From positions 992,001-1,056,000 of the forward strand of contig CAXXWS020000002.1 of NCBI GenBank assembly GCA_963665325.3: DNA of 64,000 nucleotides, read 5' to 3'. This document shows positions 9,520 through 33,781 of this stretch, piece by piece. Both the position numbers and the translations under genes were made by a program. Under the pieces are notes generated by a model. It made no database searches and was not told the DNA's origin. It worked only from the letters and a program-made list of their open reading frames with translations. Origin of the DNA: Alphaproteobacteria bacterium. GTDB lineage: Bacteria > Pseudomonadota > Alphaproteobacteria > Bin95. Within the stretch, counting starts at the first letter, position 1; the number at the start of each line of letters is the position of its first letter.

Positions 9520-9650
9520 TCCGCGCCGCCTGCGGGCGCCGGTCCTGTCTGTGCCGTCCTCGCCCGGCGCCCGGTCGTCGAATTTTGTTGCATGACGGTT
9601 TTGCGGCGATTATTGGGCCGTTGTTGAGGGTTGAATGTGTATCGGAGGAC

Positions 9651-10079
9651 ATGGCGATGGGTGCGTTTTCGTTTCGCGGCTTGTTGCGTGCGCTTCTCTT
9701 GATTAAGATCAAGTCATCCGGCCGGATCGCCGGATCGCCGGATCGCCGGATCGCCGGATCGCCGGATCGCCGGATCGCCGGATCGCCGGATCGCCGGATC
9801 GCCGGATCGCCGGATCGCCGGATCGCCGGATCGCCGGATCGCCGGATCGCCGGATCGCCGGATCGCCGGATCGCCGGATCGCCGGATCGCCGGATCGCCG
9901 GATCGCCGGATCGCCGGATCGCCGGATCGCCGGATCGCCGGATCGCCGGATCGCCGGATCGCCGGATCGCCGGATCGCCGGATCGCCGGATCGCCGGATC
10001 GCCCCACCTGCGTCCGCGTGACGGCCATGAGCGTTTCTGCATGGCTGCGCCGGCCGGGCTGTCCTTCCTCCCCGCCTGA
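9651..10079 (+). CDS. Leader ORF reading through the 8-bp repeat; putative out-of-frame 5' end of autotransporter 1
   Basis: GGAGG at 9644-9648 before ATG 9651/9657; reads (RIAGSPDR)n and stops at 10079; one base out of frame with the ORF at 10018. Confidence 0.5.
   Translation: MAMGAFSFRGLLRALLLIKIKSSGRIAGSPDRRIAGSPDRRIAGSPDRRIAGSPDRRIAGSPDRRIAGSPDRRIAGSPDRRIAGSPDRRIAGSPDRRIAGSPDRRIAGSPDRRIAGSPHLRPRDGHERFCMAAPAGLSFLPA
9721..10003. repeat. Simple sequence repeat (GCCGGATC)x35
   Basis: 280 bp of perfect 8-bp units (9721-10000) plus GCC. Confidence 0.99.
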
Positions 10080-13000
10080 GTCTTCGCACGCCGGCGGCGA
10101 GCGTTCGCCTTCCCGCCGGCCCCCCAACGCTTCCGACAGTCTCGATGCTTCTTCCGCGCGCGGCGTCGTCGCGCGCGTGGGTTCCGCCATCCGCCGGCTG
10201 CGCCCCGCCCTCGCGGCTGCGCTGCTCTCCCTGCCGCTCTTCGCCGGCCTGACCACCGGGGCCGCCGCGCAGTCGGCGGTCGAGTGCAGCACCGCCAATG
10301 ACGAGGGCTCCTACACGGTGCCCGTCAACTGGGCGCTGAAGCCCTCGGGCGTCGCCGCCGGCGGTAAGTTCCGGCTGCTGTTCATCACCTCGACCACGCG
10401 CGACGCCACGGCGACCGGTATCGCCACCTACAACACGCATGTGCAGACCGCCGCCAAGGCCGGGCACAGCGCGATCTCCGACAGTTGCGGCAATCTCTTC
10501 AAGGTTGTCGGCTCGACCTCCGCGGTGGACGCGCGCGACAACACAGGGACCACGGGCACGGGGGTGGAGATATACTGGCTGAACGGCAACAGGCTCGCCA
10601 ACAACTACGCCGACTTCTACGACGGGAGCTGGGATGATTACGGCAGGAAAAACGAGAGTGGAGGCGATACGAACGACAATATCGTCACCACAGGCAGCAA
10701 CAATGACGGCACTAAACACTCATGGTTCTTAGGTGATACCTTCGTAGTTCGGCAAGGTAACGCGGGCGATTCGACCGCAGGACCTTTGGATGAGAGTAGT
10801 AATGGTGTTCCTGGTGCTTCATCACATCATTTCTACGGCCTCTCCCCCGTCTTCAAGGTGGAGGCCGCAAGCGAGTACACGATCAGCTTCGATCCGGCGG
10901 TTTACACTTTGTCCGAGGCCGATGGGTTCGTCGACGTGACCGGCACTCTGTCGGCGGCGCAGACGAGGGCTGTCACCATACCGTTCCGCTACGAATTCCC
11001 GGACCCAGGCGCCGGATACCGGAATTTCTCCCCCGTGCCCTGGGTGACCGTCCCTGCGGGGCAGACGAGTTTCACCCTGCGCGTCCCGATCCTCGACAAC
11101 AGCCTGTTCGAGAATAACGATCTTGTCGTTATCACTGTGCCGGGGGATGCGAGCGCAAGGGCCGACCTCGTCATCCTGGACGACGAGACCGCCAGGGGCT
11201 ACGCGACTCACGAGGCCTCGGATGGCAGTTACTCATGCATCAGCCGGGGCAGGGACATCCTGGTGGATGACCAATCGGGCGGCACGATAGCGGTTCAGCA
11301 GCCCGGCTGGTGGGTGGGCCAGCCGCCGCCGGGTCTGGTGGTGGACTGGGACCGGGACAACTACGCGGTCGGCGACACCGCGACGATCACGTTCCGCACG
11401 TCGGACGGCTCGCGCTCCTGCGCCGGCATCGAATTCTGGCTCAGCGTGAGCCAGAGTCCCCACCAAACGTGGAATAACGGGCTGCCGCCGCAGCCGGCGG
11501 TACTCCAGTTCCCCAGAGACAGTCACCGCGTGTTCGTAACGCTGGGCCGCGGCCAGACGGAGGTCAGCCGGTCGTTCAAGGTCCTGGCGCCGGGCATGGC
11601 GATTTTCCAGATCAAGAAGGTGTCGAACAGGACCCCCTGGAACCTGGGCCGTCTGGGCGCCAAGCTGCGCGACATGCCGACACCGGTGGACCGCGACGGA
11701 ACCGCGCTGACGGTCAGCCGGGACCTGTGGGGGGCGGGGGCCGCCACCGAGGTGACGGCGACCGTCCACCCGGGCGTGTACTTCCAGTCGGCATCGCGGG
11801 AGGTGCAGGAGGATGCCGGGACGGTGAACCTGACGGTGGCCGTCAATCCGCCGCCGGCCACGTCCCATACGCTCGTCTACACCCTGTCCGGAACCGCGAC
11901 GTGGGACGACGACTACAACATTGCTGGCGCGACCGATAGCGGCGGCGCCGTTACGGTGCCCGCGAATGCCGGCAGCGTGACCATTCCGGTGACGATCGTC
12001 GACGACTCGGTCGATGACGACGGCGAGACAATCGTGGTCCGTCTGGCGACGAGCGGCGATTACCGGCCCGCCACGCCCGACAGCGTGACGCTCACGATCC
12101 GCAATCACGATCCGGTGCCCGAGCCGGAGGTGAGCATCGCGGCCGGGGCCGGCGTGACCGAGGGCGGCAGCGCGAGTTTCACGCTGACGGCCGATCCGGC
12201 GCCGACGGCGCCGCTGGACGTGAGCGTGACGATTGCCGCCGAGGGCGAGTTCGGCATTGCGGCCGGCGAGCGGACCGTCACCATCCCGACCACGGGCAGT
12301 TATGAGCTGACCCTTGCGACGGCGGGCGACGGCGTGGACGAGCCCGATGGCTCGGTGACCGCGACGGTGTACGCCGGCAACGGCTACACGGTCGGCGCCG
12401 CTTCCTCCGGGACGGTCGCCATCGCGGACGACGACGCGCTTCCCGCCGCCCATCCGCTGGTGAAGCATGCGCCGGTGGTCAAGCGGTTCTTCGACCGGAT
12501 CACGGCGAGGAACCAGCACGGCAACGGCGCCGCCGGGGGATGGAACAAGCGCTTCCTGAAGGCGATGGGGCACCCGGACTATGTCGACTACCCGCAGGCC
12601 GCGGTGACGGTGGCGGATGCGACGCGGATATGGAACCACGGCGGTCCCGGCGCCAACACGGCCTGGAACGGCACGGTCGCGGCGGTGACCTATGCCGAGC
12701 GGTATTTCGCCGGGCTGGTGACGCCGCCCGATCCGGTACTCATTCCGGAGATCTCCATTGCGGCGGGTGCCGGCATTACCGAGGGCGGCGATGCGGTATT
12801 CACGGTGACGGCGGACCGGGCACCGGATGCCAACCTCTCTGTGGCGCTCACGGTGTCGGAAGCCCAGGGCAGCGACTTCGTGGCCGCGTCCGACGAGGGC
12901 ACGAAGACGGTGACCGTCCTTGCCGGCGAGACTTCGGGCACGCTTACCGTGAAGACGGAGGACGACAGGGCGGACGAGCCCGACGGCTCGGTGACCGCGA

Positions 13001-14976
13001 CATTGGCAGCCGGCAGCGGCTACACGGTGGCGGCGTCCCCGCAGGACGCGGCCTCGGTTGCGGTGGCCGACAACGACGCGGCGGGCGCTCTGCCGGTGCT
13101 TTCCGTGGAGAGCAAGTCGGTGCAGGAAGGCGACGGGAAGGTGACGTTGTGGGCCACCATCGACCCGTTCCCGTCGAAGGCGGATTTCCCGGAACTTTAC
13201 AGGACGACCCGGCTGAAGCTCCGCACCATCGAGGGGACGGCATGGGACGGTGTCGACTATGTCGGCATCCCCGCCAGCTTCGGGATCACGGAGGCGTGCA
13301 ATTTCCACACCACCCTGGCGCCGAACGGGAAGCACGGGTGCCGGATCGACGAGGTGACGATTCTGGACGACTCCCATGACGATGGCGGGGAGACCTTCCA
13401 GCTTGAGGTGGGATTCGCGGACAACGAGCCGGCGCCGCTGCGCGGCCTGGGCGAGGCGCGCGGCACGGTCACCATCGAGAACTCGGACCCGCTGCCGGGG
13501 GCATGGCTGGCGCGGTTCGGTCGTGCGGTGGCGGAACAGGCTCTGGACGGCATTACGGCCCGCATGGCGGCACCACGCACGCCGGGCATGCAGGGCACGA
13601 TTGCCGGGCAGTCTCTCGACTTCAGCGGCGGGGCAAGCCTGTCTCAGTCCCCCGGATCGTTGTCCGGGGCAGGCGGGGCAAGCTTCGGCGGGGAGACGCA
13701 GGCGCAGGCGCGGGGCATGACGATGCAGGAGGTTCTGCGGGGGTCGAGCTTCTCGCTGACCGGCGAGGCGGACAGCGTCGGCGGCACGCTTGCCTTCTGG
13801 GGCGGGACGCCCGGTGCGGGCGGTCTTGTGTCCGGGTCGCAGTTTGCCGGCAATCAGCGCGGCGACCCCGGATCGGGGTCCGGGGCAGGCGGCACGGCGG
13901 TGCATCTCAGCGGCGAGACGAGCGCGGCGCTTCTGGGCACGGACTATGCGCAGGGCCCGTGGCTGGTCGGGTTCGCACTGTCGCAGAGCCGGGCCGAGGG
14001 CAGCTATGCGGCCATTGGCGGCGATGTGGCGGCGCACGCAAGCGACGGCGAGGTTGAGGCATCATTGACGGCGACGATCCCCTATGCGGCGCTGGCGGTC
14101 TCGGAGCGGTTGAAGCTCTGGGGTGCTGCGGGCCAGGGGTCCGGCGATGTGACGGTGAAGACCGCGCTGGGCGGGAGCCTCAGCGCCGACACGGCCTGGA
14201 GCATGGCGGCGGCGGGCCTGCGGGGCGACCTGCTGGCTCCTTCTGCCGAGGGGACAGGGCCGTCCCTGGCGCTGGTATCGGACGCCTTGTGGGTGCAGAC
14301 CGCGTCGGAGAAGACGCGCGACCTTGCGGCGTCGGAGTCCGATGTGAGCCGGCTCAGGCTGGGCCTTGAGGGCAGCTGGGGACTGGCGCTGGCCGGCGGC
14401 GGCAACATTGTGCCAAAGCTGGAGCTTGGGGCGCGTCATGACGGCGGCGATGCGGAGACGGGCTTCGGGGTGGAACTCGGCGGCGGTCTTGCCTGGCGCG
14501 ACCCGGGCCTCGGGCTGACGCTCGACCTGTCGGGGCGCACGCTGGTCGCGCATAACGATGGCGGGCTGGAGGACCGGGGTATCTCGGCACAGCTCGCCTT
14601 CGACCCGGAGCCTGCGAACGGTCGGGGCCTGTCCTTCGGCCTCGGCCAGGACTGGGGCGGGCGGGCGCAAGGCGGCCTCGACACGCTGTTCACGCCGGAG
14701 CCGCTGGAGGACCGCGAGGGCAGCAGCGAGGCGGAGGCGCGCTGGACGGCGGAGGCGGCCTGGGGCTTCCCGGCGTTCGACGGGCGTTTCACCGGCAGCC
14801 CGCATGTCGGGTTGGGGCTTACGACGGACGCGCGCGACTACAGTCTCGGCTGGCGGCTGACGCCGGAAGCCGCGACCGCGCCCGACCTCTCCTTCGGTCT
14901 CAGGGCGACACGTAGGGAAAGCGGCAACGCCCGGCCGGAGCATACCGTCGGCGTGGACATTACGGCGCGGTGGTAA
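10018..14976 (+). CDS. Autotransporter adhesin-like protein 1 (N-terminal lectin-like domain, Calx-beta/Ig-like repeats, C-terminal beta-barrel)
   Basis: Signal-like RRLRPALAAALLSLPLFAGLTTGAAAQ; Calx-beta-like motifs (VTIPVTIVDDSVDDDGETIVV, DEPDGSVTAT); barrel motifs AWLARFGR and GARHDGGDAETGFGVELGGG; terminal W. Confidence 0.85.
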   Translation: MTAMSVSAWLRRPGCPSSPPESSHAGGERSPSRRPPNASDSLDASSARGVVARVGSAIRRLRPALAAALLSLPLFAGLTTGAAAQSAVECSTANDEGSYTVPVNWALKPSGVAAGGKFRLLFITSTTRDATATGIATYNTHVQTAAKAGHSAISDSCGNLFKVVGSTSAVDARDNTGTTGTGVEIYWLNGNRLANNYADFYDGSWDDYGRKNESGGDTNDNIVTTGSNNDGTKHSWFLGDTFVVRQGNAGDSTAGPLDESSNGVPGASSHHFYGLSPVFKVEAASEYTISFDPAVYTLSEADGFVDVTGTLSAAQTRAVTIPFRYEFPDPGAGYRNFSPVPWVTVPAGQTSFTLRVPILDNSLFENNDLVVITVPGDASARADLVILDDETARGYATHEASDGSYSCISRGRDILVDDQSGGTIAVQQPGWWVGQPPPGLVVDWDRDNYAVGDTATITFRTSDGSRSCAGIEFWLSVSQSPHQTWNNGLPPQPAVLQFPRDSHRVFVTLGRGQTEVSRSFKVLAPGMAIFQIKKVSNRTPWNLGRLGAKLRDMPTPVDRDGTALTVSRDLWGAGAATEVTATVHPGVYFQSASREVQEDAGTVNLTVAVNPPPATSHTLVYTLSGTATWDDDYNIAGATDSGGAVTVPANAGSVTIPVTIVDDSVDDDGETIVVRLATSGDYRPATPDSVTLTIRNHDPVPEPEVSIAAGAGVTEGGSASFTLTADPAPTAPLDVSVTIAAEGEFGIAAGERTVTIPTTGSYELTLATAGDGVDEPDGSVTATVYAGNGYTVGAASSGTVAIADDDALPAAHPLVKHAPVVKRFFDRITARNQHGNGAAGGWNKRFLKAMGHPDYVDYPQAAVTVADATRIWNHGGPGANTAWNGTVAAVTYAERYFAGLVTPPDPVLIPEISIAAGAGITEGGDAVFTVTADRAPDANLSVALTVSEAQGSDFVAASDEGTKTVTVLAGETSGTLTVKTEDDRADEPDGSVTATLAAGSGYTVAASPQDAASVAVADNDAAGALPVLSVESKSVQEGDGKVTLWATIDPFPSKADFPELYRTTRLKLRTIEGTAWDGVDYVGIPASFGITEACNFHTTLAPNGKHGCRIDEVTILDDSHDDGGETFQLEVGFADNEPAPLRGLGEARGTVTIENSDPLPGAWLARFGRAVAEQALDGITARMAAPRTPGMQGTIAGQSLDFSGGASLSQSPGSLSGAGGASFGGETQAQARGMTMQEVLRGSSFSLTGEADSVGGTLAFWGGTPGAGGLVSGSQFAGNQRGDPGSGSGAGGTAVHLSGETSAALLGTDYAQGPWLVGFALSQSRAEGSYAAIGGDVAAHASDGEVEASLTATIPYAALAVSERLKLWGAAGQGSGDVTVKTALGGSLSADTAWSMAAAGLRGDLLAPSAEGTGPSLALVSDALWVQTASEKTRDLAASESDVSRLRLGLEGSWGLALAGGGNIVPKLELGARHDGGDAETGFGVELGGGLAWRDPGLGLTLDLSGRTLVAHNDGGLEDRGISAQLAFDPEPANGRGLSFGLGQDWGGRAQGGLDTLFTPEPLEDREGSSEAEARWTAEAAWGFPAFDGRFTGSPHVGLGLTTDARDYSLGWRLTPEAATAPDLSFGLRATRRESGNARPEHTVGVDITARW
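13650..13674 (+). repeat. Intragenic palindromic element (CCCCGGATC-N-GTCCGGGGCAGGC family)
   Basis: CCCCGGATCGTTGTCCGGGGCAGGC; related copies at 13866, 45308, 47537 and 48991. Confidence 0.7.
13866..13890 (+). repeat. Intragenic palindromic element
   Basis: CCCCGGATCGGGGTCCGGGGCAGGC encodes PGSGSGAG, in a segment absent from the paralogous barrel. Confidence 0.75.
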
Positions 14977-15049
14977 GCCTGCGGCAAGCGGAGGACCCCG
15001 GTCGCCCGTCATGCGTCAATGGCGCGTGACGGGCGCTCGACGCATCCCT

Positions 15050-16204: not shown

Positions 16205-16224
16205 CGCTCAGGCTCCCCCCAAGA

Positions 16225-18300
16225 TTACGCTTCATACTGCGCCCCAGTACTTCGTTGCCCCACAAGATCGGGGAAACGTCCTTGTTTTGAAGTCTTTGGT
16301 TGTTTGGCAGGTGGTGGATCGGGGAGTTCGAACAGGTATCCGGGTTTGTCGTTATAGGCGTGTCCGCGCAGAAGGCCGGCCCTGTGCCATCGGTATACCG
16401 TTTCGTCGGACACCCCGAGCCGGTTGGCGGCTTCCAGGGCGGTCAACAGCCCGAGTTCGCGCAGCCGTTGATGGCGGGACTTGAGAGCGTATTTGTCCCG
16501 GACCACCCTTACCAACATCGGATTGAAGGCGTGGCCGTATCCGCTTCGGTACCCGCGCTCGTTGAGGATTGTTGCGATCTCGCCGATGGTGTGGTCGTTC
16601 AACAGCCTGTCGACCTCGGCGACGACATCGTTGCTGGTCTTGTGGATTTCAGACGCGAGTGGACCCGGTTTCCAGGTAAGCTGTCGGGTCGCGCCACCGC
16701 GCAGCCGCACCCCCAGGCTGCGCGTAGCCTTGGTCAGTGTCACGTCCTCGATCAGCAGCCGCGCCATTCGCTTGCGCTCGCGGTGCGGCGTCGCCGGATC
16801 GTTCCACAGACGGGGGAAGTCACTGACCAGCGCGAGGATTCGCTCGCGTTGCCGATCGTCCAACCTCTGGCCCGGTTCAGCGCGGCTGCACTCGAGCTCG
16901 CGCTGTGCCTCGTCGAGGGCCCGAAGCTTCGCATTCCACTCCGCCTCCAGCACGTTGGCCACCATCCGGTTGTCGGGATGGGTCTGCATGAACCGCTGCC
17001 GCGCCAAGTCCGCTTCCTCGCGGGCGCGCTGAACCCGTTGAGCGCGCCACAGATCCGCCTCCCCGGCGCGTGCGGCGAGTTCGTCCTGTACCTGCAGCGC
17101 CATGTCCAGCGTGAGCGGTGTCATCAGCTCGACCAGCAGCTCGCCAATCGCTTGGTCTATGGCGCCGCCGGATATGCTCTGACAATTCCCGGCGCCCGCC
17201 GTCTCGATCTTTTCACGGGCGCACAGGTAGTAGGGGTTCAGCCCCCCTTTGCGGCTGCGATAGTGCACCGTCATGTTCCTGCCGCACACGCCGCAAATGG
17301 CCAGGCCCTGCAGCAGTGCGGGCCCCTCGCGCGGCGCACTGCGGCGCCCCGCGGCGCGCGCTTGAGCGTTGTCCCGGAGCTGGCGCTCATTCTCCTCGAA
17401 CCGCTCCCAGGTGATATAGCCCGGGTGGGCATCGCGCAGCAGGACTGTCCATTCCTCGCGTGCCAGGCGTTTCTTCTCGGCGCCCCCTCCGGGACGCCGC
17501 CGGCTGCGGCTGCGCCCGAACGCGAAAGCGCCGGCGTATCGCGGGTTGTGCAGAATCTGCAGCGCGCGCGTGAGCTTCAGAGGCTTCCAATGCAACTCGC
17601 CCCTGTGCGGCCCGCTGCGAGGACGGTACGGAAACAGCAATTTCTCGTTGTTGAAATGCCTGACCGTGGCGCTGGCCGAGCCGGTCCTGGTGAAGGTGTC
17701 GAACAGCAGGCGCAGACTGTGCTGCACCTGCTCGTCGGGGTCGAGCGCCACATTGCCGAGTGGGTCGTATACCAGCCCCACCGGCAGCGTCATCCTCAAC
17801 TCCCCGCGCTTGGCCTTGGCCAGCACTCCGCCCCGCATCCGGGCGCGCATCATGTGCAGCTCGGCCTCGCTCATGGTTCCTTTGAGCCCGAGCAGGAGCC
17901 GGTCGTTGAAGTCGCCGGGATCGTAGACGCCGTCCTCGTCGAGGATCAGCGTCTCGCTCAGGGCGCATATCTCGAGCAGGCGATGCCAATCGGTGGAGTT
18001 CCTCGCGAGCCTGGACACTTCGAGCCCGAGCACGATGCCGGCCCGGCCCATGCCGGCCTCGGCGACCAGACGCTGGAACCCCTCTCGGTCGGCGTCGGCG
18101 CCGGAGAGACCGAGATCGCTGTCGATCACGACGATGCTCTCGGTCGGCCAGCCCAGTGCCACGGCCCGCTCCCGCAGCGCGTACTGGCGCCGCGTGCTCT
18201 CGCCATGTTCGAATACCTGGCGCTGAGTAGACTGACGCACATACAGATAGGCATCGCGGCTCAGGTGGCTCGTCGTCACCTTCTGGTGAGCGGGATTCAT
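16225..18300 (-). CDS. Large serine recombinase (resolvase, recombinase, zinc ribbon and C-terminal HTH domains)
   Basis: AYLYVRQST catalytic Ser motif, LEVSRLARN, LLLGLKGTMSEAEL, LHNPRYAG, CGVCG...YYLC zinc ribbon. Confidence 0.93.
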   Translation of the reverse strand: MNPAHQKVTTSHLSRDAYLYVRQSTQRQVFEHGESTRRQYALRERAVALGWPTESIVVIDSDLGLSGADADREGFQRLVAEAGMGRAGIVLGLEVSRLARNSTDWHRLLEICALSETLILDEDGVYDPGDFNDRLLLGLKGTMSEAELHMMRARMRGGVLAKAKRGELRMTLPVGLVYDPLGNVALDPDEQVQHSLRLLFDTFTRTGSASATVRHFNNEKLLFPYRPRSGPHRGELHWKPLKLTRALQILHNPRYAGAFAFGRSRSRRRPGGGAEKKRLAREEWTVLLRDAHPGYITWERFEENERQLRDNAQARAAGRRSAPREGPALLQGLAICGVCGRNMTVHYRSRKGGLNPYYLCAREKIETAGAGNCQSISGGAIDQAIGELLVELMTPLTLDMALQVQDELAARAGEADLWRAQRVQRAREEADLARQRFMQTHPDNRMVANVLEAEWNAKLRALDEAQRELECSRAEPGQRLDDRQRERILALVSDFPRLWNDPATPHRERKRMARLLIEDVTLTKATRSLGVRLRGGATRQLTWKPGPLASEIHKTSNDVVAEVDRLLNDHTIGEIATILNERGYRSGYGHAFNPMLVRVVRDKYALKSRHQRLRELGLLTALEAANRLGVSDETVYRWHRAGLLRGHAYNDKPGYLFELPDPPPAKQPKTSKQGRFPDLVGQRSTGAQYEA

Positions 18301-18599
18301 GCGGCTTCCCTCCCCATATGACCGTTGAGCATGGCGATCAAAATGTCGATCGCCGACGTCTCGACCCCGGTGGGCAACGGCCCGGGCGAGGTCGCCGGGC
18401 ACAGGGCGGGCGGCGGGGCAGGCAGTTCGGCGAGGGCATGCAGCCAGGCCGCGACGCCGCGCAGCGCCACCAGGGCGATCCCGTGGCGGTCGTGGGCGGC
18501 GCCGGGCTCGACGGCATGACGGCGCATCCGCTCGTAACCGTGCCCGTAGGCGGAATGCTCCGCCGCGGCGAGCGCGGCGCAGGGCGGGTTGTGCATCAT
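18297..18599 (-). CDS. Small hypothetical protein of the serine recombinase element
   Basis: ATGA overlaps with both neighbours; YERMRRHA...GIALVALRGVAAWL. Confidence 0.65.
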   Translation of the reverse strand: MMHNPPCAALAAAEHSAYGHGYERMRRHAVEPGAAHDRHGIALVALRGVAAWLHALAELPAPPPALCPATSPGPLPTGVETSAIDILIAMLNGHMGREAA

Positions 18600-19955: not shown

Positions 19956-20096
19956 AAAACATACCCTAAGATATTGTAAATATGGAGATATCTACTTTTA
20001 TGTAATCACACCGCATGCGGATGGCTTCAACTCCGCGACCCCTCACGTCCCCGTAGGGGGTAAGCCTTCGGGCGAGCCGTGGAGAGGACGACGATA

Positions 20097-23362: not shown

Positions 23363-23520
23363 GCGCCCGACGATAGCGCAGGGTTCTCCGCGTTACCAGC
23401 CCCCTTGCGGCACCTCGATTCGCTCTGGATCACGAACCGTTGTCGGATTTCTCACGGCTCGCCCGAAGGCTTACCGTAGGGGTGTAAGCCTTCGGGCGAG
23501 CCGTGGAGAGGACGACGATA

Positions 23521-24402: not shown

Positions 24403-26786
24403 CCCGGGGCCGTGAACTTGAGCCTGCGCTCCTCGCTCATCGACCAGGGCAGCCAGGCCGACAAGTCGTCCGGCGGCTGGCGGCCATTTTCCGCACACGC
24501 CGCCAGCCACGCTTCCAGCCAGCGCAGCACGTCGATGCCGTTCATCGAGAGCGTGCCGACGACCGAGTACATGATCGCGGTGAACTCCGCGCCGTCCGCG
24601 CTGTTGGAACCGAAGCTCAGCCCCCGTCCGATTGCCGGAGCACGCAAGATTCTTTCGGCGACATTATTCGTGAGGGGCACTTGCGGGTGGTCGACGAAGA
24701 CGCACAGCCCCTCGCGATGGTTGAGAAGCGAACGCAGCGCCTTGCCTTCGCGCGCGTGCTCCGGCAGAGCGGCCAGCTCCGCCTCGGCGTGCGCGAACAG
24801 GCGGTCGAGCGCCTTCTTCAGTTTGCGCGTCGCTTTCCTGAACGCCGCAGTCTGGCGTTTGCGGCCGGGCTTGTAATGTTCCAGCCGCGCATCGTTCAGC
24901 CGGAAGATCTCCGCGATCCGCTCGATCCATTCCTGGCACCATTGCGTCAGCCGTTCCTGGCCGGCCGCGGCCTCGATGTAGTCGCGGCGCACATGGGACC
25001 AGCAGAAGGCGAGGATCACCTTGCCCCCGAGAAGGCGCACGAGCCGCTTGTATGCGCTGTAGCGGTCGCAGACGACGATCGTGTGGGGCAGGGCTTCGGC
25101 GAACAGCTTGAGCGCCGCCTCGGCGCTGCGGCTCGGGTCGATGTGGAAGCAGACCGCGTCGTGGCTGACCGAGGTCCACAGCCAGGCCCGGTTCGACCGA
25201 TCTTCCCCGCGCAGCTCCTGCACACGCCAGGAGGTCTCGTCGGCATGGCGCACCACCGCCTCGTTCTGGTGCGCGAGAATCGCCTCGAACAGCGGCAGGA
25301 ACAGCGGCACGAAGCGCTTCAGGCTGTCGGCCAGCGTCCCCGGCGACACCGCCAGCCCCTGGGCCGACATCCATGCCGCGGTCCGGCTCAGCGGGCGCAG
25401 CCCGACACTGAGTTCGAAGAGGAAGCGCGCCCAGAAGGTGATTCCGTAGGGCGTGCCGCGGAACAGCCGCGCCACCGGGGGCGCGGACACTTCCATCGGC
25501 GAGGACGCGCACTCGCAGGTCCGGCGCATGCGTGGGCGCTGGATCACGCGCTTGTGGGCCTTGACCTCGATCTCGACGAGGGTGGATTCCTCGACGCCGT
25601 TCGCGGCGTAAGGCTCCCCGCATTGCGCGCACACGCACGCCTCCGGCGGCGGGGCGTGGACTTCAGGGCGCTCCTCGAGCCCGGGCCGCCGAGTGCGGCC
25701 GTGACCGGGCGCGCCGCGCTGCTGGCCGCGCTTGCGGTCCGAGCGCGGCTTGTTCTGCTGCTCGCTCTTGCGCCCATAGAGCCTCTTCGACAGCACCTTC
25801 CCGGTTGCACGGAGCTTCGTGGTCTCGGCTTCCAGCGCCTCGATCCGGTTCCGCGCGCCCTTCACGGTTCTGCGCAACCGGGCGTTCTCCCTCGACAGGG
25901 TCTTGATCGTTTTCTTCTGGCGCCGCGACCGCCTCAGGACGGTGCGCAGGTGAGCCACCTCGTCGAACGGCAACTTCGTCAGCGTCGCCCCGGCCGCGCG
26001 CAGCTTGGCAATCCGGGCCTTCAGCTTCTCCCGCCTGGCCTCGGACATCTTCAGCGCATAGCGCAGCCCGGACACTTCGTGGGACAGCGACCGGGACCGG
26101 ATCTCGGCGTCTCTCAGGAACGTCAGCTCCCTGCGGAAGCTCAGGTTCTCGCGGGACAGCGCCTTGGCGGTTTCCCTGATGCTTTCCGACCTCTCCTTCT
26201 CCTCTTCCAACTGCTTGTTGAGCCGGGCAATCTGGGTGTACAGCGATTTGACCGACATCTCGCGTGCCGGCGCCATTCGACTGCGCCGCGCGGCCTCGGA
26301 TCGCTCAGCGGCGTCCGTCGACACGAGACCGCGCATTCGACCGATCACGATGCGCGCGGATACGATCCTCGCGCCTTCGCCCGGCTCAAGGCCGGGGGCG
26401 CACAGAAGTTTCCCGGGGGCGCACAGAAGTTTCTCCAACTGCGCCAGCTCCGTCTGCAACAAGGGGACGGTCTTGACCGCGCGGCGCAGTTCCCTGGTCT
26501 CTTCCTCGACCGCCGTCAGCTTGCTGCGGCACTTGCCGAACCGCGACTTCCACGAACCGGCATCGCTACGGGCAGCCACTTCGGCCCAGCGCAATTCCTC
26601 AACGCGCGCCTCCGCCGCGTCCGCGCGCGCTTGTTCCCGATCCGCACGGGCGCGCTCACGCTGCAACAGCGTCAGCAAATCGCACGGCTCGTGCTCTGGC
26701 CGGGGCGCGGGAGAAAACCGTATCCCCCCGTCGACCTCGACCGGCGTCAGGTCTGTCGTGGCAAGATCAGCGTCGAGAACCACCAT
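24399..26786 (-). CDS. tnpC: IS66-family transposase (copy 2)
   Basis: Same translation as 20975-23362. Confidence 0.9.
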   Translation of the reverse strand: MVVLDADLATTDLTPVEVDGGIRFSPAPRPEHEPCDLLTLLQRERARADREQARADAAEARVEELRWAEVAARSDAGSWKSRFGKCRSKLTAVEEETRELRRAVKTVPLLQTELAQLEKLLCAPGKLLCAPGLEPGEGARIVSARIVIGRMRGLVSTDAAERSEAARRSRMAPAREMSVKSLYTQIARLNKQLEEEKERSESIRETAKALSRENLSFRRELTFLRDAEIRSRSLSHEVSGLRYALKMSEARREKLKARIAKLRAAGATLTKLPFDEVAHLRTVLRRSRRQKKTIKTLSRENARLRRTVKGARNRIEALEAETTKLRATGKVLSKRLYGRKSEQQNKPRSDRKRGQQRGAPGHGRTRRPGLEERPEVHAPPPEACVCAQCGEPYAANGVEESTLVEIEVKAHKRVIQRPRMRRTCECASSPMEVSAPPVARLFRGTPYGITFWARFLFELSVGLRPLSRTAAWMSAQGLAVSPGTLADSLKRFVPLFLPLFEAILAHQNEAVVRHADETSWRVQELRGEDRSNRAWLWTSVSHDAVCFHIDPSRSAEAALKLFAEALPHTIVVCDRYSAYKRLVRLLGGKVILAFCWSHVRRDYIEAAAGQERLTQWCQEWIERIAEIFRLNDARLEHYKPGRKRQTAAFRKATRKLKKALDRLFAHAEAELAALPEHAREGKALRSLLNHREGLCVFVDHPQVPLTNNVAERILRAPAIGRGLSFGSNSADGAEFTAIMYSVVGTLSMNGIDVLRWLEAWLAACAENGRQPPDDLSAWLPWSMSEERRLKFTAPG

Positions 26787-26903
26787 GCGCCCGACGATAG
26801 CGCAGGGTTCTCCGCGTTACCAGCCCCCTTGCGGCACCTCGATTCGCTCTGGATCACGAACCGTTGTCGGATTTCTCACGGCTCGCCCGAAGGCTTACCG
26901 TAG

Positions 26904-27050: not shown

Positions 27051-27054
27051 TCTC

Positions 27055-27396: not shown

Positions 27397-27516
27397 GCAT
27401 CGATCATACATTCCCGCCGGCACGGAGCAAGGATCCCGCGTGGCGGAATCGGGCGTGCCTGGGGCTGCAAGCCCCAACGAGCCCAGCGATGAGCCGGTGC
27501 ACGCTTTCGGCGGCGA

Positions 27517-27735: not shown

Positions 27736-28208
27736 CGCGCGGAGTCGCCCCGGGTTGCCGTCACCGGCAGGTCCTCGTACCGATCCGGACCAGATCGCCG
27801 CCCGGCGTCGAGAGTCGCCATGATGGAATCGCCCGGAGGTCTCATGTCGTTGGCCTGACGACGATACGACGCTCGCCATGCGTGAGCCCGCAGGCGCCGT
27901 CGTGCCCTCGGGCGTCGGTGTCGCCCGCGCAACCGGCGCAGCGAACCGCGGCCGTGGCGAAGGCGGTTGAGCGAAGCATGGCCACGACTATACCGCCCAA
28001 TCGGTGGCGTTCGACAGCGGCGCGGCCAATCCCTTCGAGAGAGAGGCGGAGCCCGACATCGTTCCTGGGCTCGGCCCGCTTGATGTGGATGCGTGTCGTG
28101 ACGTCCGTCCCTCGGGTGCGTCCGACCCGGCGCCGGCTGAGCGTCGGTCGGCGATGGTGGTCAAGGTGTGCGTCGCGCGGCGTTCGCTCTCTGTCGGCGT
28201 TCATTGTA

Positions 28209-28237
28209 TTGATTTGCCGCCGGGTTCGGTTTACGGT
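28209..28237 (+). promoter_or_regulatory. Putative sigma70 promoter of autotransporter 2
   Basis: TTGATT-N17-TACGGT in a local AT-rich patch about 95 bp upstream of RBS/ATG 28334. Confidence 0.35.
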
Positions 28238-28333
28238 TTGCGCAAGTGGGACAGGCGATGCTTGGCGGGATTGTGTGCGGCGTCGGACGGGGCGCGGGAC
28301 GGTCAGCCGGGCGACAGGTTCGGAGGCGACACG

Positions 28334-31300
28334 ATGACCATGACGGACAAGACGCGTGACGTGCTGCGCGCGACGGGAGCGAGTGTTCTGGAGGCGCTGG
28401 GTCTGGACGGCAAGGCGAACGAACTGTTTTCGTCCGGGGGGTTGACAAGCGCCGCTGAGGGTTCCGACAGTATAATGGTCGCCGGGTCGCCGGGTCGCCG
28501 GGTCGCCGGGTCGCCGGGTCGCCGGGTCGCCGGGTCGCCGGGTCGCCGGGTCGCCGGGTCGCCGGGTCGCCGGGTCGCCGGGTCGCCGGGTCGCCGGGTC
28601 GCCGGGTCGCCGGGTCGCCGGGTCGCCGGGTCGCCGGGTCGCCGGGTCGCCGGGTCGCCGGGTCGCCGGGTCGCCGGGTCGCCGGGTCGCCGGGTCGCCG
28701 GGTCGCCGGATCGCCGGATCGCCGGATCGCCGGATCGCCGGATCGCCGGATCGCCGGATCGCCGGATCGCCGGATCGCCGGCCATGAGTGCGTCCGGCGC
28801 ATGGCTTCGCCGGCTCCGCTCCCGCCCGCCGTCCTCCCCGCCTGAACCTTCCCGTTCCGCGGTCCGGCGGCTGCGTCCCGCCCTTGCCGCCGCGCTGCTC
28901 TCCCTGCCGCTCCTGGCGGGCCTTCCGACCGGGGCGCAGGCCCAGGTCGCGTGCGGTACCGCCAATGCCGACGGCTCGTACCCGGTGCCGGACAACTGGG
29001 CGCTGAAGCCCTCGGGGCTCGGCGTCGGGGCCAAGTTCCGGCTGCTGTTCGTGACCTCCACCCAACGCGACGCCACGGCGACCGACATCGCCACCTACAA
29101 CACGTATGTGCAGACCCGCGCCAAGGCCGGTCACAGCGCGATCGCCGACAGCTGCGGCAACCTCTTCAAGGTCGTCGGTTCGACCTCGGCGGTGGACGCG
29201 CGCGACAACACCGGGACCACCGGCACGGGCGTTCCGATCTACTGGCTGAACGGCGCCAAGGTCGCCGATAACTACGGCGACTTCTACGACGGAACCTGGG
29301 ACAGCTACGGCTTTGCGAACGCGAAGACTGAGAGCGGAGGTGCCGCTGTGTTGGGTAATGCGCATACCGGCAGCAACGCTGACGGCACCAAGCATGGCTT
29401 TTATCTCGGCCACGGCAGCGCGGTTAGACGTGGCACGATTCAAAGTGGTGGTAATCCGTTAACTCAGGCCGTATCCCCCCCTACGAGTGCCCACACGTTC
29501 TACGGCCTCTCCCCGGTATTCTCGGTGGTTGTGGCTCCGCTCGCCGCCAAGCCGTCCACGGTACGCGAGGGGGGTGTCAGTTTTGTCACCGTCACCGGTT
29601 TTCCGTCCAGCTGGGGCGCGCCCCGGATAAGGTCCCTTGCCGGCGCCACGACGTCGCTCAGGTGCGACCATGTGACTGACGGGCTGTCCAACTCTGGTAA
29701 CAACCTCGATGTCTGCGTCGGCCTGGCCGACGGCACCCGCACCCGGGGGCATTGGGACGGCGTCGCGTACAGGCTGACGCTGACCGTGGTGGCCGACGGC
29801 GTGGCCGAGAACGAAAGCCTCACGGTGACGTTCGAGGATTCGACCGACACCAGCAGGACCAGGACGGCCGTCATCGCGCTCGACGACAGGTCGCCCCTGC
29901 CGTTCGTCAGCCTCGAAGCGGTTGTCGGCACCAATCCCGGCAACGTGGTTTCCCCGACCCCGCATACCGTCACGGAGGGGGGTGCGTTCAACCTCCGGGT
30001 GAAGATGGATCCCTGGTTCAGGCTGGCCACTCCGGTCATCGTGAACTACTACCTCGCCGACTACCACGGCGAGCGTGTGGTCCGGGGGCCGAGCCTCACG
30101 GATCCGAAGCGGGATCGGGACCCCAACCCCCGGAGCATCGAGATCGGGGCCGGGCATTCCGCTACGGTCATTCACATACCGACCGTGGCGAGCCCCGACC
30201 TCGATGGCGACAGCAAGGTGGAGGTCATCCTGCTGGGCGGCAGGGACTATGCGACCAGCACGGGCAAGCTGACGCTCACGGTCCAGGACGCGGACCCGGT
30301 CACGAACATAGACGACAACACGCGGGCGCAGATGCTGGCCACGCCCTCGACGCTGACGCTCGGCGCCGATGCGGCTTCGGTGACGGAGGGCGGCGAGGTG
30401 ACCTTCACGGTCACGGCCGCCCCGGCGCCGGGCTACGACCTCCCGGTGCACCTGGGCGCGTCGGAGGAGATGGGCGCGGGCCTGGACTATATCGGGCTCG
30501 AACGGGCCCGCACGGTGACGATCCCGGCGGGCGCGACCTCGGCGGCCTGGACGGTCACGACCTGGTCGGACGACAAGCAGCGCGCCGACGGCACGGTGGT
30601 GGCCCGGATCAAGCCGGGCGACGGCTACACGGCGGGCACGCCGTCGACGGTCACCGTGGCCCTGCTCGACGACGACGCGCCGGCGCTGGACCCGTCGCTG
30701 GTGGCGCAGGTCAGAATACTTGCGGGGCAGACCCATAACGGCGCGGCGCATGTCCTGCGCTGGCGGCGGGTGCTGGTGGCGTTCGGGGTGGAGGCGTATC
30801 CGGGCGTGACGGCGATGACGGCGGCGCAAGCCGAGGCGAATGCCCGTCGCTACAGCAGCCCGCTCTGGCCCCGGATCGCGGAGGCGATCGGGGCGATCGG
30901 GGCGGCGGGGAGCGACCCCGCGCCGCAGCAGGCCGCGACGCAGCAGGCCGCACCGGCGGTGGACCCGGCGCTGGTTGCGCTGGTCAGGAGCTACGCGGCG
31001 GAGACCCATAACGGCGCGGCGCATGTGGAACGCTGGATGCGCGTGCTCGCGGCTTTCGGCGAAGACAACGGCCGTGCGCCGATGACGGCGGCGGAGGCGC
31101 GGACCTATGCCGACCGGGGCTGGACACGCTGGGACCCGGTGGTCGTGGCGATCGCGGCGCTGGAAGCGGCGCCCGAGCCGGAGCCGCAGCCCGTAATCCC
31201 GCCGGCGGTGAGCGTCGCGGCCGGGGAGGCGGTCTCCGAAGGCGGCGGCGCGGTGTTCACGCTCACGGCGGCGCCGGCCCCGGCATCGCCGCTGGCGGTC

Positions 31301-33781
31301 GAGGTGACGGTTGGCGCCGAGGGCGACTTCGGCATTGCCGCCGGCGCGCGGACGGTGACCGTTCCGACGAGCGGCAGCCTCGTGCTGACCCTGGCGACGG
31401 TCGATGACGGTACGGACGAGCCGGACGGCTCGGTGAGCGTGACCCTGAACGGCGGCGACGGCTACACGGTCGGTTCCCCGGCATCGGGCGCCGTCGCCGT
31501 GACGGACGACGACCTGCCGCCGCCGGTGGTCTCGGTGACGGCGAAGGCCGGCTCCATTACCGAGGGGGCGGGCGCGGTGTTCACGGTGACGGCGGACCGG
31601 GCGCCGGATGCGGCGCTTGCGGTGCGGCTCACGGTCTCGGAGGAAGCGGGCAGCGACTTCGTGGCCGCGGGCGACGAGGGCGGTCGCACGGTGACCATCC
31701 CGGCCGGCACGACCGGGGTTGCGCTCACCGTGGCGACGGACGACGACGCGGCGGACGAGCCCGACGGCTCGGTGAGCGCGGCGGTGGATGCCGGCGCGGG
31801 CTACACGGTGGCGGCGTCTCCGGGGGATACGGCCTCGGTCGCGGTGGCCGACAACGACGCGGCGGCCACCGGGGCGTCGCTCTCGGTGGACGACGCGACG
31901 GTGAAGGAAGGCGCGGGGCTGATGTGGTTCACGCTCCGGCTGAGCGCGCCGTCGGAGCGGGCGGTGCGGGTGTCGTACCGGACCCGGGAGTCGAGCCCGG
32001 TGTCGGCGCGGCAGGGCCGGGACTACCTTGCCGCCGGCTGGCATCTCTACTTCCAGCCGGGCGAGACCGAGAAGCGGGTGTGGGTCTGGGTCTACGACGA
32101 CAGCCATGACGAGGACCCGGAGACGTTCGAGTTCGTGCTGACGGAGGCGACGGTGGTGCCGATCGCGGACGGCGTGGCGGTGGGGACGATCGTGAACGAC
32201 GACCCGCTGCCGGCGGCGTTCCTGGCGCGCTTCGGGCGCACGGTGGCGGAGCAGGCGCTGGACGGCATCGCGGGGCGCATGGCGGCCCCGCGCACGCCCG
32301 GCATGCAGGGCACGGTTGCCGGGCAGGCGCTCAACTTCGACCCCGCCGCCGGCCGGCCGGCAGCGGGCGCAACGCCCGGCGCAACGCCGGCGGACCGCGA
32401 TACGGCGCTGGCCATGGCCGACATCGCGCGCGGCTTCGGTGCGGATGCGCCCGCCGCGGTATCGCCGGGCGGCGCGGGCGACCGGTTCGGCGACGCCCGT
32501 GCCGGCGCGTCCCTGGCGCAATCGCGGTCGATGACGGCGCGCGACGCGCTGCTCGGATCGAGTTTCTCGCTGACCGGCGCGGCGGACGGCTCGGGCGGCA
32601 GCCTGGCGTTCTGGGGCCGGGCGTCGCAGGGGAGCTTCGACGGCCGCGAGGGGACGTTCTCGCTCGACGGCACGGTCACCACGGGCATGCTCGGCGCGGA
32701 CTATGCGCGCGGCAAGTGGCTGGTCGGCCTGGCGCTCGCGCAGAGCGCGGGCGAGGGCGACTACCGCGACACCGAGGTCAGTCCCCGTCCCGACGGCCAG
32801 AGCTGTCCCGACGGCGCGGACGCCGAACTGTGCGGCGGCGCCGTACGCGCGGGCGACGGCGCGGTGGAGGCGTCGCTGACGGCGGCGATCCCCTATGCGG
32901 CGCTGCAGGTCTCGGAGCGTCTGAAGCTCTGGGGCGCGGCGGGCTACGGCACCGGCGAGGTGACGCTGAAGACCGCGCTGGGCGGCAGCTACAGCTCCGA
33001 CACGAGCTGGAGCATGGCGGCGGCGGGGCTCAGGGGCGACCTGCTGGCTTCCCCGGCCGAGGGCTCCGGGCCGGCGCTGGCGGTGACCTCGGACGCGCTG
33101 TGGACGCGGACCTCGTCGGAGAAGACCCGCGACCTCGCGGCCTCGGACTCCGACGCGACCCGGCTCCGGCTCGGGCTGGAGGGCAGCTGGCGGTTCGCGA
33201 TGGAGGGCGGCGGGTCTCTGGTGCCGAAGCTGGAGATCGGCGCACGCCATGACGGCGGCGATGCCGAGACCGGCTTCGGGGTCGAGATCGGCGGCGGGAT
33301 CGCGTGGAGCGACCCGGCGCTCGGTCTCTCGCTCGACGTCTCGGGCCGCACGCTGCTGGCGCACGAGAACGACGACCTGAAGGACCGGGGCTATGCGGCC
33401 TCGCTCGCCTTCGACCCGGACCCGGCGACGCAGCGGGGTCCGTCGCTCAACCTGCGCCAGGAGTTCGGCGGGCAGGCGCAGGGCGGGCTCGACGCGCTGT
33501 TCCAGCCGGCGACGCTGGAGGACCGCACGGGCAGCGAGGCCGCGTCCCGCTGGAGCATGGAAGCCGCGTACGGCTTCCCGGCCTTCGGCGGGCGCTGGAC
33601 CGGCAGCCCGCATGTGGGGCTGGGGCTTGCGACGGGCGCGCGCGACTACAGCCTCGGCTGGCGGCTGACGCCGGAAGCCGACGCGCCCGACTTCTCCTTC
33701 GGCCTCAGGGCGACCCGCAGGGAGAGCGATATGGACGCGCCGGAGCACACCGTGGGGTTCGAGGTCCGCGCGCGCTGGTAA
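28334..33781 (+). CDS. Autotransporter adhesin-like protein 2 (paralog of 10018-14976), in frame through the 8-bp repeat
   Basis: GGAGG at 28322-26 and ATG 28334; frame open through the repeat to the signal-like segment; same N-terminal domain, Calx-beta repeats and barrel; alternative start ATG 28784. Confidence 0.85.
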   Translation: MTMTDKTRDVLRATGASVLEALGLDGKANELFSSGGLTSAAEGSDSIMVAGSPGRRVAGSPGRRVAGSPGRRVAGSPGRRVAGSPGRRVAGSPGRRVAGSPGRRVAGSPGRRVAGSPGRRVAGSPDRRIAGSPDRRIAGSPDRRIAGSPAMSASGAWLRRLRSRPPSSPPEPSRSAVRRLRPALAAALLSLPLLAGLPTGAQAQVACGTANADGSYPVPDNWALKPSGLGVGAKFRLLFVTSTQRDATATDIATYNTYVQTRAKAGHSAIADSCGNLFKVVGSTSAVDARDNTGTTGTGVPIYWLNGAKVADNYGDFYDGTWDSYGFANAKTESGGAAVLGNAHTGSNADGTKHGFYLGHGSAVRRGTIQSGGNPLTQAVSPPTSAHTFYGLSPVFSVVVAPLAAKPSTVREGGVSFVTVTGFPSSWGAPRIRSLAGATTSLRCDHVTDGLSNSGNNLDVCVGLADGTRTRGHWDGVAYRLTLTVVADGVAENESLTVTFEDSTDTSRTRTAVIALDDRSPLPFVSLEAVVGTNPGNVVSPTPHTVTEGGAFNLRVKMDPWFRLATPVIVNYYLADYHGERVVRGPSLTDPKRDRDPNPRSIEIGAGHSATVIHIPTVASPDLDGDSKVEVILLGGRDYATSTGKLTLTVQDADPVTNIDDNTRAQMLATPSTLTLGADAASVTEGGEVTFTVTAAPAPGYDLPVHLGASEEMGAGLDYIGLERARTVTIPAGATSAAWTVTTWSDDKQRADGTVVARIKPGDGYTAGTPSTVTVALLDDDAPALDPSLVAQVRILAGQTHNGAAHVLRWRRVLVAFGVEAYPGVTAMTAAQAEANARRYSSPLWPRIAEAIGAIGAAGSDPAPQQAATQQAAPAVDPALVALVRSYAAETHNGAAHVERWMRVLAAFGEDNGRAPMTAAEARTYADRGWTRWDPVVVAIAALEAAPEPEPQPVIPPAVSVAAGEAVSEGGGAVFTLTAAPAPASPLAVEVTVGAEGDFGIAAGARTVTVPTSGSLVLTLATVDDGTDEPDGSVSVTLNGGDGYTVGSPASGAVAVTDDDLPPPVVSVTAKAGSITEGAGAVFTVTADRAPDAALAVRLTVSEEAGSDFVAAGDEGGRTVTIPAGTTGVALTVATDDDAADEPDGSVSAAVDAGAGYTVAASPGDTASVAVADNDAAATGASLSVDDATVKEGAGLMWFTLRLSAPSERAVRVSYRTRESSPVSARQGRDYLAAGWHLYFQPGETEKRVWVWVYDDSHDEDPETFEFVLTEATVVPIADGVAVGTIVNDDPLPAAFLARFGRTVAEQALDGIAGRMAAPRTPGMQGTVAGQALNFDPAAGRPAAGATPGATPADRDTALAMADIARGFGADAPAAVSPGGAGDRFGDARAGASLAQSRSMTARDALLGSSFSLTGAADGSGGSLAFWGRASQGSFDGREGTFSLDGTVTTGMLGADYARGKWLVGLALAQSAGEGDYRDTEVSPRPDGQSCPDGADAELCGGAVRAGDGAVEASLTAAIPYAALQVSERLKLWGAAGYGTGEVTLKTALGGSYSSDTSWSMAAAGLRGDLLASPAEGSGPALAVTSDALWTRTSSEKTRDLAASDSDATRLRLGLEGSWRFAMEGGGSLVPKLEIGARHDGGDAETGFGVEIGGGIAWSDPALGLSLDVSGRTLLAHENDDLKDRGYAASLAFDPDPATQRGPSLNLRQEFGGQAQGGLDALFQPATLEDRTGSEAASRWSMEAAYGFPAFGGRWTGSPHVGLGLATGARDYSLGWRLTPEADAPDFSFGLRATRRESDMDAPEHTVGFEVRARW
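28477..28780. repeat. Compound simple sequence repeat (GCCGGGTC)x28 + (GCCGGATC)x9
   Basis: Units counted directly: 28481-28704 and 28705-28776. Confidence 0.99.

Follow-up and report, generated by a model that had tools for sequence, protein, structure and literature searches.

Long octanucleotide tracts ahead of the signal peptide as a probable translational switch in an alphaproteobacterial autotransporter family

Two paralogous genes for large autotransporters, referred to here as gene 1 and gene 2, lie in a 64,000-nt stretch of DNA from an alphaproteobacterium of the lineage Bin95 (assembly GCA_963665325.3, contig CAXXWS020000002.1, positions 992,001 to 1,056,000 of the forward strand; hereafter the window). 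Each gene carries a long array of 8-nt repeats between a short leader open reading frame (ORF) and the region for a putative signal peptide. We propose that the repeat tract is probably, though far from certainly, a slipped-strand translational ON/OFF switch, with the full precursor produced only if leader ATG and autotransporter body share one reading frame. The proposal is based on the anatomy of the module, its conservation in a larger gene family, allelic differences in unit number and the statistics of the reading frames, all of which were established in this study. On the switch model, gene 2 would be ON and gene 1 OFF, and this call depends on initiation at the leader ATG. Phase variation of the two genes had been suggested by an earlier reading of the window made from the letters alone (the sequence-only reading); the comparative lines below uphold the core of that suggestion, and the ON/OFF call for gene 1 is a consequence of the model.

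In the proposed mechanism, translation would begin at a strong Shine-Dalgarno (SD)-ATG on the 5' side of the repeat and cross a leader of 24-50 codons and the stop-free tract, and the ribosome would then go on into a linker rich in Ser, Pro and Arg, and from there into the Sec signal peptide and the autotransporter body. A unit gained or lost by a slipped-strand event within the population would shift the leader frame against the body, so that one phase in three would give the full precursor and the other two would end at conserved stops 3-75 nt past the tract. Stops before the tract would shut the two other frames, and only the leader frame would reach the repeat; with stops on both sides, the OFF phases would be tight.

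Tracts, leaders and proteins of the two window genes

Using Tandem Repeats Finder, the gene 1 tract was resolved with period 8 as 35.4 copies of GCCGGATC with 100% matches, and the gene 2 tract, also with period 8, as 38.1 copies with 99% matches, made up of 29 GGTCGCCG followed by 9 GATCGCCG. The perfect octamer array of 283 bases in gene 1 cannot be a chance product. In both genes GGAGG and ATG, a leader, the octamer tract and a near-identical signal-like segment (RRLRPALAAALLSLPLFAGL and RRLRPALAAALLSLPLLAGL) follow one another, and this layout, already described in the sequence-only reading, can be read directly from the landmarks in Table 1. The same reading had counted 35-37 units; its period of 8 was reproduced, and the measured copy numbers take the place of its range. 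The frames were also as it had stated. In gene 1, (10027-9651) mod 3 = 1, and the leader frame crosses the tract one base out of frame and ends at TGA 10077-10079, whereas in gene 2, (28784-28334) mod 3 = 0, and a single ORF of 1815 aa runs from ATG 28334 through the tract. The ORF list for the window contains 9585..10079 (the gene 1 leader frame), 10018..14976 and 28004..33781. By the same arithmetic, leader and body of gene 1 would be joined in frame by the addition of one unit or the removal of two, as had been claimed.

The peptides encoded by the tracts are repeats of VAGSPGRR and IAGSPDRR. Because the unit has 8 nt (5 or 7 nt in relatives), the same peptide is obtained from every tract frame, in agreement with the earlier remark that each frame gives one octapeptide. 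The absence of stops from the units was discarded as evidence, since by a rough estimate about four fifths of random 8-mers are stop-free in all frames at 67% GC. None of 100 shuffled sequences had a minimum free energy as weak as that of the tract RNA (z +5.05 in gene 1, +4.64 in gene 2), so translation through the tract should not be hindered by RNA folding.

Table 1 Features of the two autotransporter genes and of their neighbourhood (window positions)
Feature	Position	Strand	Remarks
TrwC-type relaxase/helicase gene, directly 5' of gene 1	4073..8911	+	PF08751 262 bits; AAA_30 158.7 bits
SD GGAGG of gene 1 leader ORF	9644..9648	+	2 nt before ATG 9651, 8 nt before ATG 9657
Gene 1 leader ORF, type B MAMGAFSFRGLLRALLLIKIKSSG	9651..9720	+	Reads into tract; present phase ends at TGA 10077-10079
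AT-rich patch in gene 1 leader, TTGTTG-N17-TAAGAT	9681..9709	+	Sigma-70-like, 8/12; read from sequence
Gene 1 pre-tract stops	TGA 9700-9702; TAA 9704-9706	+	Shut the two non-leader frames directly 5' of tract
Gene 1 tract, (GCCGGATC) x 35.4	9721..10003	+	100% pure; (RIAGSPDR)n in every frame
Gene 1 candidate post-tract starts	GTG 10018; ATG 10027	+	Read from sequence
Gene 1 post-tract +1-frame stops	TGA 10019-10021; TGA 10028-10030	+	Second overlaps ATG 10027 (ATGA)
Gene 1 body	10027..14976	+	1649 aa from ATG 10027; linker, signal peptide ~10192-10272, head, repeats, C-terminal barrel
Conserved +2-frame TGA in motif TCCCCGCCTGAGTCTTC, gene 1	10077..10079	+	Terminates leader frame
Large serine recombinase gene, between the two genes	16225..18402	-	Resolvase, Recombinase, Zn_ribbon_recom
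Two tandem IS66-family transposase ORFs, between the two genes	20975-23362; 24399-26786	-	795 aa each; first copy PF03050 177.9 bits
SD GGAGG of gene 2 leader ORF	28322..28326	+	7 nt before ATG 28334
Gene 2 leader ORF, type A MTMTDK...GGLTSAAEGSDSIM	28334..28476	+	In frame with body through tract
Gene 2 full in-frame precursor	28334-33781	+	1815 aa
Gene 2 hexamers, TTGACA and TATAAT	28442-28447; 28471-28476	+	23-nt spacer; TATAAT abuts tract
Gene 2 pre-tract stops	TGA 28456-28458 (+2 frame); TGA in TTGACA and TAA in TATAAT (+1 frame)	+	
Gene 2 tract, 38.1 units	28477..28781	+	(VAGSPGRR)n then (IAGSPDRR)n
Gene 2 body from post-tract ATG (ATGA)	28784..33781	+	+1-frame stop 28785-28787, +2-frame stop 28843-28845; signal peptide ~28865-28939

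The beta-domain of a classical type Va autotransporter is present in gene 2 by direct match and in gene 1 by similarity. The C-terminal 393 aa of the gene 2 protein match Pfam PF03797 (Autotransporter beta-domain) with 39.9 bits against a cut-off of 26; the match covers about 32609-33271, and the barrel extends to 33778. The gene 1 C-terminus gave no Pfam match of its own, and it shares 64% identity with its gene 2 counterpart over 414 aligned positions; both proteins end with W. In both, a Ser/Pro/Arg-rich linker precedes the putative Sec signal peptide (RRLRPALAAALLSLPLLAGLPTGAQAQ), which was recognized by eye: its n-region is basic, its core is hydrophobic and an A-x-A site is present. Both proteins also contain Calx-beta and LapA-like repeats, and both are putative adhesins. 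The gene 1 head domain is DUF1554-like, as a lead only from ESM Atlas, which gave DUF1554 clusters at 0.81; a PDB sequence search with the head domain gave no match, and the NCBIfam search gave a sub-threshold Calx-like match and nothing else. The signal segment stands 27-55 residues past the post-tract Met and 177 residues past the gene 2 leader Met. The pre-signal extension of the in-frame gene 2 precursor carries a net charge of +22 and is probably located in the cytoplasm, which is compatible with the positive-inside rule, yet unusual.

A shared module in a larger gene family

When the whole source genome (G000; five contigs C1-C5, 5.58 Mb, 67% GC, multi-replicon) was scanned for octamer arrays of at least four copies, such arrays were found at six places only, every one ahead of a member of this gene family. 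Each is followed after 2-24 nt by an ATG, the sequence 'MSxxAWLRRPGRPSSPPES', the Ser/Pro/Arg-rich linker and a signal peptide. A seventh module forms the start of contig C2 (bases 1-60), where a tract would end; the leader of this copy is missing, and the assembly is broken at its tract. The eighth, (AGCCGAG)14 at C1:1337013-1337110 on the minus strand, has on its 5' side a leader ATG and GTAAGTAAG, which shuts both other frames, and it leads into a linker and signal peptide of the same kind followed by a different large surface protein. The family in this genome has at least eight modules, and its copies are spread over all five contigs. The paralogy of the two genes seen in the sequence-only reading was thus borne out, within a family that is larger and more varied than the pair, with units of 5, 7 and 8 nt.

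Beyond this genome, the octamer pattern recurs in other species of the genus (8 of 16), none of 24 genomes searched outside it has the pattern, and a search with the conserved post-tract motif gave 14 loci from six genomes. Elsewhere the head domain is uncommon, with 4 genomes out of 36 others in the order and 2 out of a sample of 400 others from the class. A search for related loci in genome contigs returned only two distant ones, from metagenome-assembled genomes of Dehalococcoidia and Rariloculaceae; both were matches to the head domain and were not used. Eleven distinct units were collected, none of them a multiple of three in length: four octamers (GCCGGATC, GCCGGGTC, TGCCGGAT and CCCCGGAT), five heptamers (CCGGATG, ACGCCGG, AGCCGAG, GCGCCGT and that of the 7-residue peptide repeat in database protein P0008) and two pentamers (AAGCC and AGCCG). 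Across loci and database homologs the unit sequence varies and the position of the tract is constant. At every locus with an intact upstream side, an SD-like sequence and a start codon are followed by a leader ORF of 24-50 codons that runs into the tract. These leaders are of two types, type B as in gene 1 ('..FRGLLRAL.LIKI..') and type A as in gene 2 ('..G-L-T..(7-11 residues)..I-I/M'). The gene 2 leader is also present at three loci in genome G011 and at C1:576867 of the source genome, where the upstream 1.43 kb shares 96.6% identity with the same region of gene 2; the type B leader, with SD and start codon, is present at loci in three other species (G006, G010 and G015), and in P0008 it stands ahead of the 7-nt unit.

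The reading frames around the tracts argue for translation from the leader. Phase, start codons and frame-closing stops were tallied over 16 loci, which comprise paralogs and orthologs with about nine leader families. At six of them the body frame has no ATG, GTG or TTG from the tract to the signal-peptide region, and those genes would be translatable from the leader only; a Met is also lacking between the tract and that region in three database proteins (P0008, P0074 and P0109). The linker is kept in the body frame at 15 of 15 loci despite many indels. In type A leaders two hexamers, TTGACA and TA(T/C)AAT, are separated by 20, 23 or 32 nt, always 2 mod 3 (16 of 16 loci), so the indels between them are codon-preserving. 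In the 60 nt that precede the tract, stops shut both non-leader frames and the leader frame is open at 14 of the 16 loci, compared with a background of 0.066 in long open frames of the source genome, and one of the two misses, on contig C5, is an artefact of the tract finder, because its +2-frame stop is present and its +1-frame TAA lies in TATAAT. In the 90 nt that follow the tract, stops shut both non-body frames at 15 of 16 loci (background 0.126), with the off-frame stops 3-75 nt past the tract. Closure before the tract is achieved by three unrelated sequences (TTGACA..TGA..TATAAT, TTGATTAAG and GTAAGTAAG), which argues for selection on the stops themselves. A tract-less paralog (G009:C1:639513-643169) has the SD-ATG, a leader remnant with AGTATAATC, 'AWRCRP', the linker, the signal peptide and the head domain in one open frame, and it keeps a degenerate remnant of about two units, as a 'locked-on' form of the gene.

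Unit number differs between alleles and between paralogs. Gene 2, with 37.9 units in this comparison, has an allele of 19.9 units with the same leader in another assembly (P0064). A further locus of the source genome (C1b) has 14.75 units and its counterpart in G011 has 21.75, which places the two in different phases, and two paralogs in G011, whose flanks are identical, carry 10.75 and 4.75 units. In a cluster at 90% identity from five assemblies (P0069), the in-frame alleles differ by 16 residues, equal to six units, and of the other alleles one begins only at the post-tract Met and another far downstream. Four of the 16 loci are in frame (gene 2, G000 C5, G011 C1a and G009 c), in line with the expectation of the sequence-only reading that about one third of homologs would be; the off-phases hold eight loci, which end at a conserved gccTGAg, and four, which end at the stop beside the post-tract ATG. 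A protein family search (E <= 0.001, 8000 candidates scored) gave 707 matches, and among the 120 homologs listed the annotated N-terminus is leader plus repeat peptide in 9, the post-tract Met in 61 and a later position in 50. The analysis covered 22 sequencing runs, all as Logan contigs and none recorded as RNA; the contigs over 9300-9810 end inside the gene 1 tract. Taken together, several features of a translational switch based on a simple sequence repeat (SSR) are found here, namely a unit that is not a multiple of three in what would be the translated 5' part, allele differences of whole units, nearby off-frame stops and about one third of loci in frame.

Alternatives to a leader-driven switch

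Several observations weigh against the translational switch. An ATG lies 2 nt (gene 2) or 23 nt (gene 1) past the tract in the window genes, a post-tract ATG is present in all 12 loci of this type at 2-24 nt (51 nt in G004), and the 61 listed homologs mentioned above are annotated from it; if this ATG initiates alone, the genes would not be OFF, and gene 1 would not be fully off. In addition, the two hexamers, in perfect form, adjoin the tract in 16 of 17 type A loci, with the second 0-9 nt away from it, as conserved islands amid otherwise unrelated leader sequence. In the leader frame they fall on rare codons (by a crude count, TTG makes up 5.8% of Leu codons and ACA 7.1% of Thr codons), and of the six TTGACA-N14-36-TA[TC]AAT pairs in the source genome, five are at tract loci, which together point to selection on DNA or RNA rather than on the peptide. 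Possibly the hexamers act as a promoter from which the transcript would begin within the tract and lack the leader ATG; their conservation could be explained in part by the stops that they contain (TGA and TAA), which would not require all six bases. The heptamer CCGGATG of G004 includes an ATG, so that initiation would be possible there in any frame and the switch may be leaky. A stretch of 177 residues ahead of a Sec signal peptide, with which the long precursor would have to be exported, is unusual, and because the loci are related by descent, the counts given above overstate the significance.

In a competing explanation, the hexamers would be a promoter, the mRNA would start in the first unit, the tract would be untranslated, the post-tract ATG would be used and unit number would tune the level of expression rather than the frame, as in the hmw genes of Haemophilus influenzae, in which 7-bp or 8-bp GCATCATC repeats lie 5' of hmw1A and hmw2A (PMC3309571, PMC12721329). 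We regard this explanation as rather unlikely, if the strongest of the competitors. It would account for the hexamer islands and their near-restriction to tracts, for the wide conservation of the post-tract Met, and for the flanks from which contigs of other strains run into the tract, which end with TATAATA, GATAATT or TACAATCA. The gene 1 leader type offers a candidate with the right spacing: its TTGTTG-N17-TAAGAT agrees at 8 of 12 positions, and relatives have better versions, TTG(T/C)TG-N17-TAA(A/G)(A/C)T. An orphan module in the source genome (C1:1244758-1244911) also fits, as it consists of GGAGG, ATG, a short leader with TTGACG-N20-TATAAT, 9 nt and (GCGCCGT)22, and then stops within 50 nt past the tract without an autotransporter body downstream; the next long ORF has 748 codons and, by eye, a terminal cytochrome-P450-like heme motif. 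The sixth hexamer pair of the genome, TTGACA-N20-TATAAT at C1:2085720 on the minus strand, lies within AT-rich intergenic sequence, about 30 nt before the GGGAGA-ATG of an unrelated gene and so where a promoter would typically be, and it hints that a promoter with a 20-nt spacer may be functional in this organism.

Against this stand the type A spacers of 20, 23 and 32 nt, which are outside the 17 +/- 1 nt of sigma-70, and a promoter scan that found no canonical sigma-70 promoter (16-18 nt spacing) near the gene 1 or gene 2 tract, with a threshold of 9/12 at gene 1. The post-tract ATG has no SD in either window gene (for gene 1 the sequence-only reading had already seen no obvious ribosome-binding site before GTG 10018/ATG 10027), and an mRNA of this kind would lack a start codon at six of the 16 loci, although the hexamers are kept there. 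The SD-ATG leaders, the codon-preserving indels, the frame-closing stops and the absence of units divisible by three would be left unexplained. A regulatory RNA hairpin of the hmw kind was rejected, because the tract RNA is less stable than all 100 shuffles. The caveat of the earlier reading, that the tract might act in a 5' untranslated region (UTR), stands in the same balance: the leader and frame evidence speaks against it, and the hexamers abutting the tract keep it alive.

In a variant of the leader-driven switch, the leader would be translated in every phase, and loci with a post-tract ATG could be three-state switches in which it serves as a coupled upstream ORF. In one phase the ribosome would stop at ATGA and re-initiate to give a precursor of normal length, in the in-frame phase a long fusion would be made, and in the third, with the stop 50 nt past the ATG, the gene would be off. 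The post-tract ATG is part of ATGA in 12 of 12 loci although the second residue varies (Ser from AGC or AGT, Lys from AAG, Thr from ACC), the +1-frame stop is located at the post-tract ATG or 9 nt before it, and GGAGG is found at the leader and no SD at this ATG, all of which would suit coupling. We nevertheless find this variant unlikely, as kinship reduces the 12 of 12 to a few independent events at most, any stop in that frame would be equally good as a plain terminator, and the post-tract ATG is missing at 6 of 16 loci. Neutral instability, by which selfish or accidental microsatellites would sit in a dispensable N-terminus and translation would start at or near the signal peptide (for example at GTG 10176 in gene 1), is very improbable. 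GTG or TTG codons near the signal peptide at some loci and the 50 listed database proteins annotated from there or later would agree with it, but not the in-frame linker at 15 of 15 loci, the lack of a start codon in gene 2 between ATG 28784 and the signal-peptide region, the same position of the tract in all eight modules and in 8 of 16 congeners, or the enrichment of wrong-frame stops. A two-layer arrangement, not known from earlier descriptions, can also be imagined, in which a frame-reading upstream ORF with three outputs (fusion, ATGA re-initiated precursor and silence) would be combined with a hexamer promoter firing into the tract. This is a speculative and doubtful combination; the promoter could keep the repeat transcribed and hence unstable, which would put the expression and the mutability of a copy under separate signals, and repeat changes at hmw are described as requiring transcription (PMC12721329). 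The slipped-strand switch read from the leader ATG remains the explanation that we favour.

Known repeat switches, significance and genomic context

The closest known system is Neisseria opa, for which PMC5953494 lists a genic CTTCT repeat of 7-21 units and 4 to 12 copies per genome. As in opa, an outer-membrane protein family is present in multiple copies, each with its own SSR of a unit length not divisible by three in the translated 5' end, the copies are in different phases, and off-frame copies stop nearby. The opa repeat is located inside the signal-peptide coding part. Here, unlike in opa with its CTTCT/CTCTT pentamers, the units have 8, 7 or 5 nt, the tracts reach 38 units (305 nt) and lie ahead of the signal peptide within a long charged extension, the products are type Va autotransporters of 1650-2000 aa in a 67% GC, 5.6-Mb multi-replicon host, and a post-tract ATG and promoter-like hexamers before the tract are present. 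In H. influenzae biogroup aegyptius, the octamer GCATCATC occurs 12-15 times upstream of hmw1A/hmw2A (PMC3309571), and according to PMC12721329 the hmw repeats belong to the transcribed 5' UTR and form a long hairpin cut by RNase III, with lower expression at higher repeat number. The present genes are similar to hmw1A/hmw2A (ATCTTTC heptamer or octamer) in having many-copy 7- or 8-bp SSRs before paralogous genes for large type V-secreted adhesins, and differ in the SD-ATG leader ORF through the tract, an RNA less structured than shuffles and the dominance of frame-related features. Genic SSR switches are also described for Neisseria pglE (CAAACAC, 5-34 units) and for the autotransporter gene nalP (poly-C) (PMC5953494). 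These are precedents for a heptanucleotide genic tract with as many as 34 copies and for a phase-variable autotransporter, but they are single genes without a shared N-terminal switch module, and their hosts are small-genome, host-restricted pathogens. In a literature search that left subscription journals largely outside, we did not find this family, the pre-signal-peptide tract or octamer/heptamer switches in Alphaproteobacteria described.

SSR phase variation is described in PMC11475388 as typical of bacterial pathogens with small genomes. In the present case, a large-genome (5.6 Mb), 67% GC bacterium has at least eight giant autotransporter genes on one shared switch module, each of them most likely turned on or off at random and independently of the others. 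Long units and long tracts, the position before the signal peptide, the bracketing frame-closing stops and the promoter-like hexamers are unusual in such a module. If the switch is confirmed, contingency-locus bet-hedging would be extended to a new lineage and a new gene architecture, and the family would provide a natural experiment on the distance that may separate a Sec signal peptide from the N-terminus. For annotation, the module explains the three kinds of N-terminus among the listed homologs (9, 61 and 50 of 120) and assembly breaks such as that of contig C2.

The neighbourhood of both window copies holds genes of mobile elements (a relaxase, a serine recombinase and two IS66-family copies; Table 1), and to that extent the idea in the sequence-only reading that the family is carried on mobile elements was supported, for these two copies only. 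The IS66-family ORFs sit in a tandem duplication of about 3.4 kb (20079-26903), each copy of which has a perfect 21-bp x 2 repeat (22968-23009 and 26392-26433). Arrays of a 23-bp repeat are found at 35222-35313 (about 3 copies) and 37930-38045 (about 5 copies), about 2.6 kb apart; their consensus units look reverse-complementary by eye, and they may bound a mobile element. Elsewhere in the source genome, a family member at C1:498805 (L046) has an N-terminal module that breaks off within the cleavage region of the signal peptide; unrelated DNA with many 'GAGTCGCCA' repeats takes its place, probably as the result of insertion or rearrangement. Further long simple repeats on contig C3, (GAGGCGC)18 at 709149-709274, C14 at 698009-698022 and G12 at 788423-788434, may be additional contingency loci.

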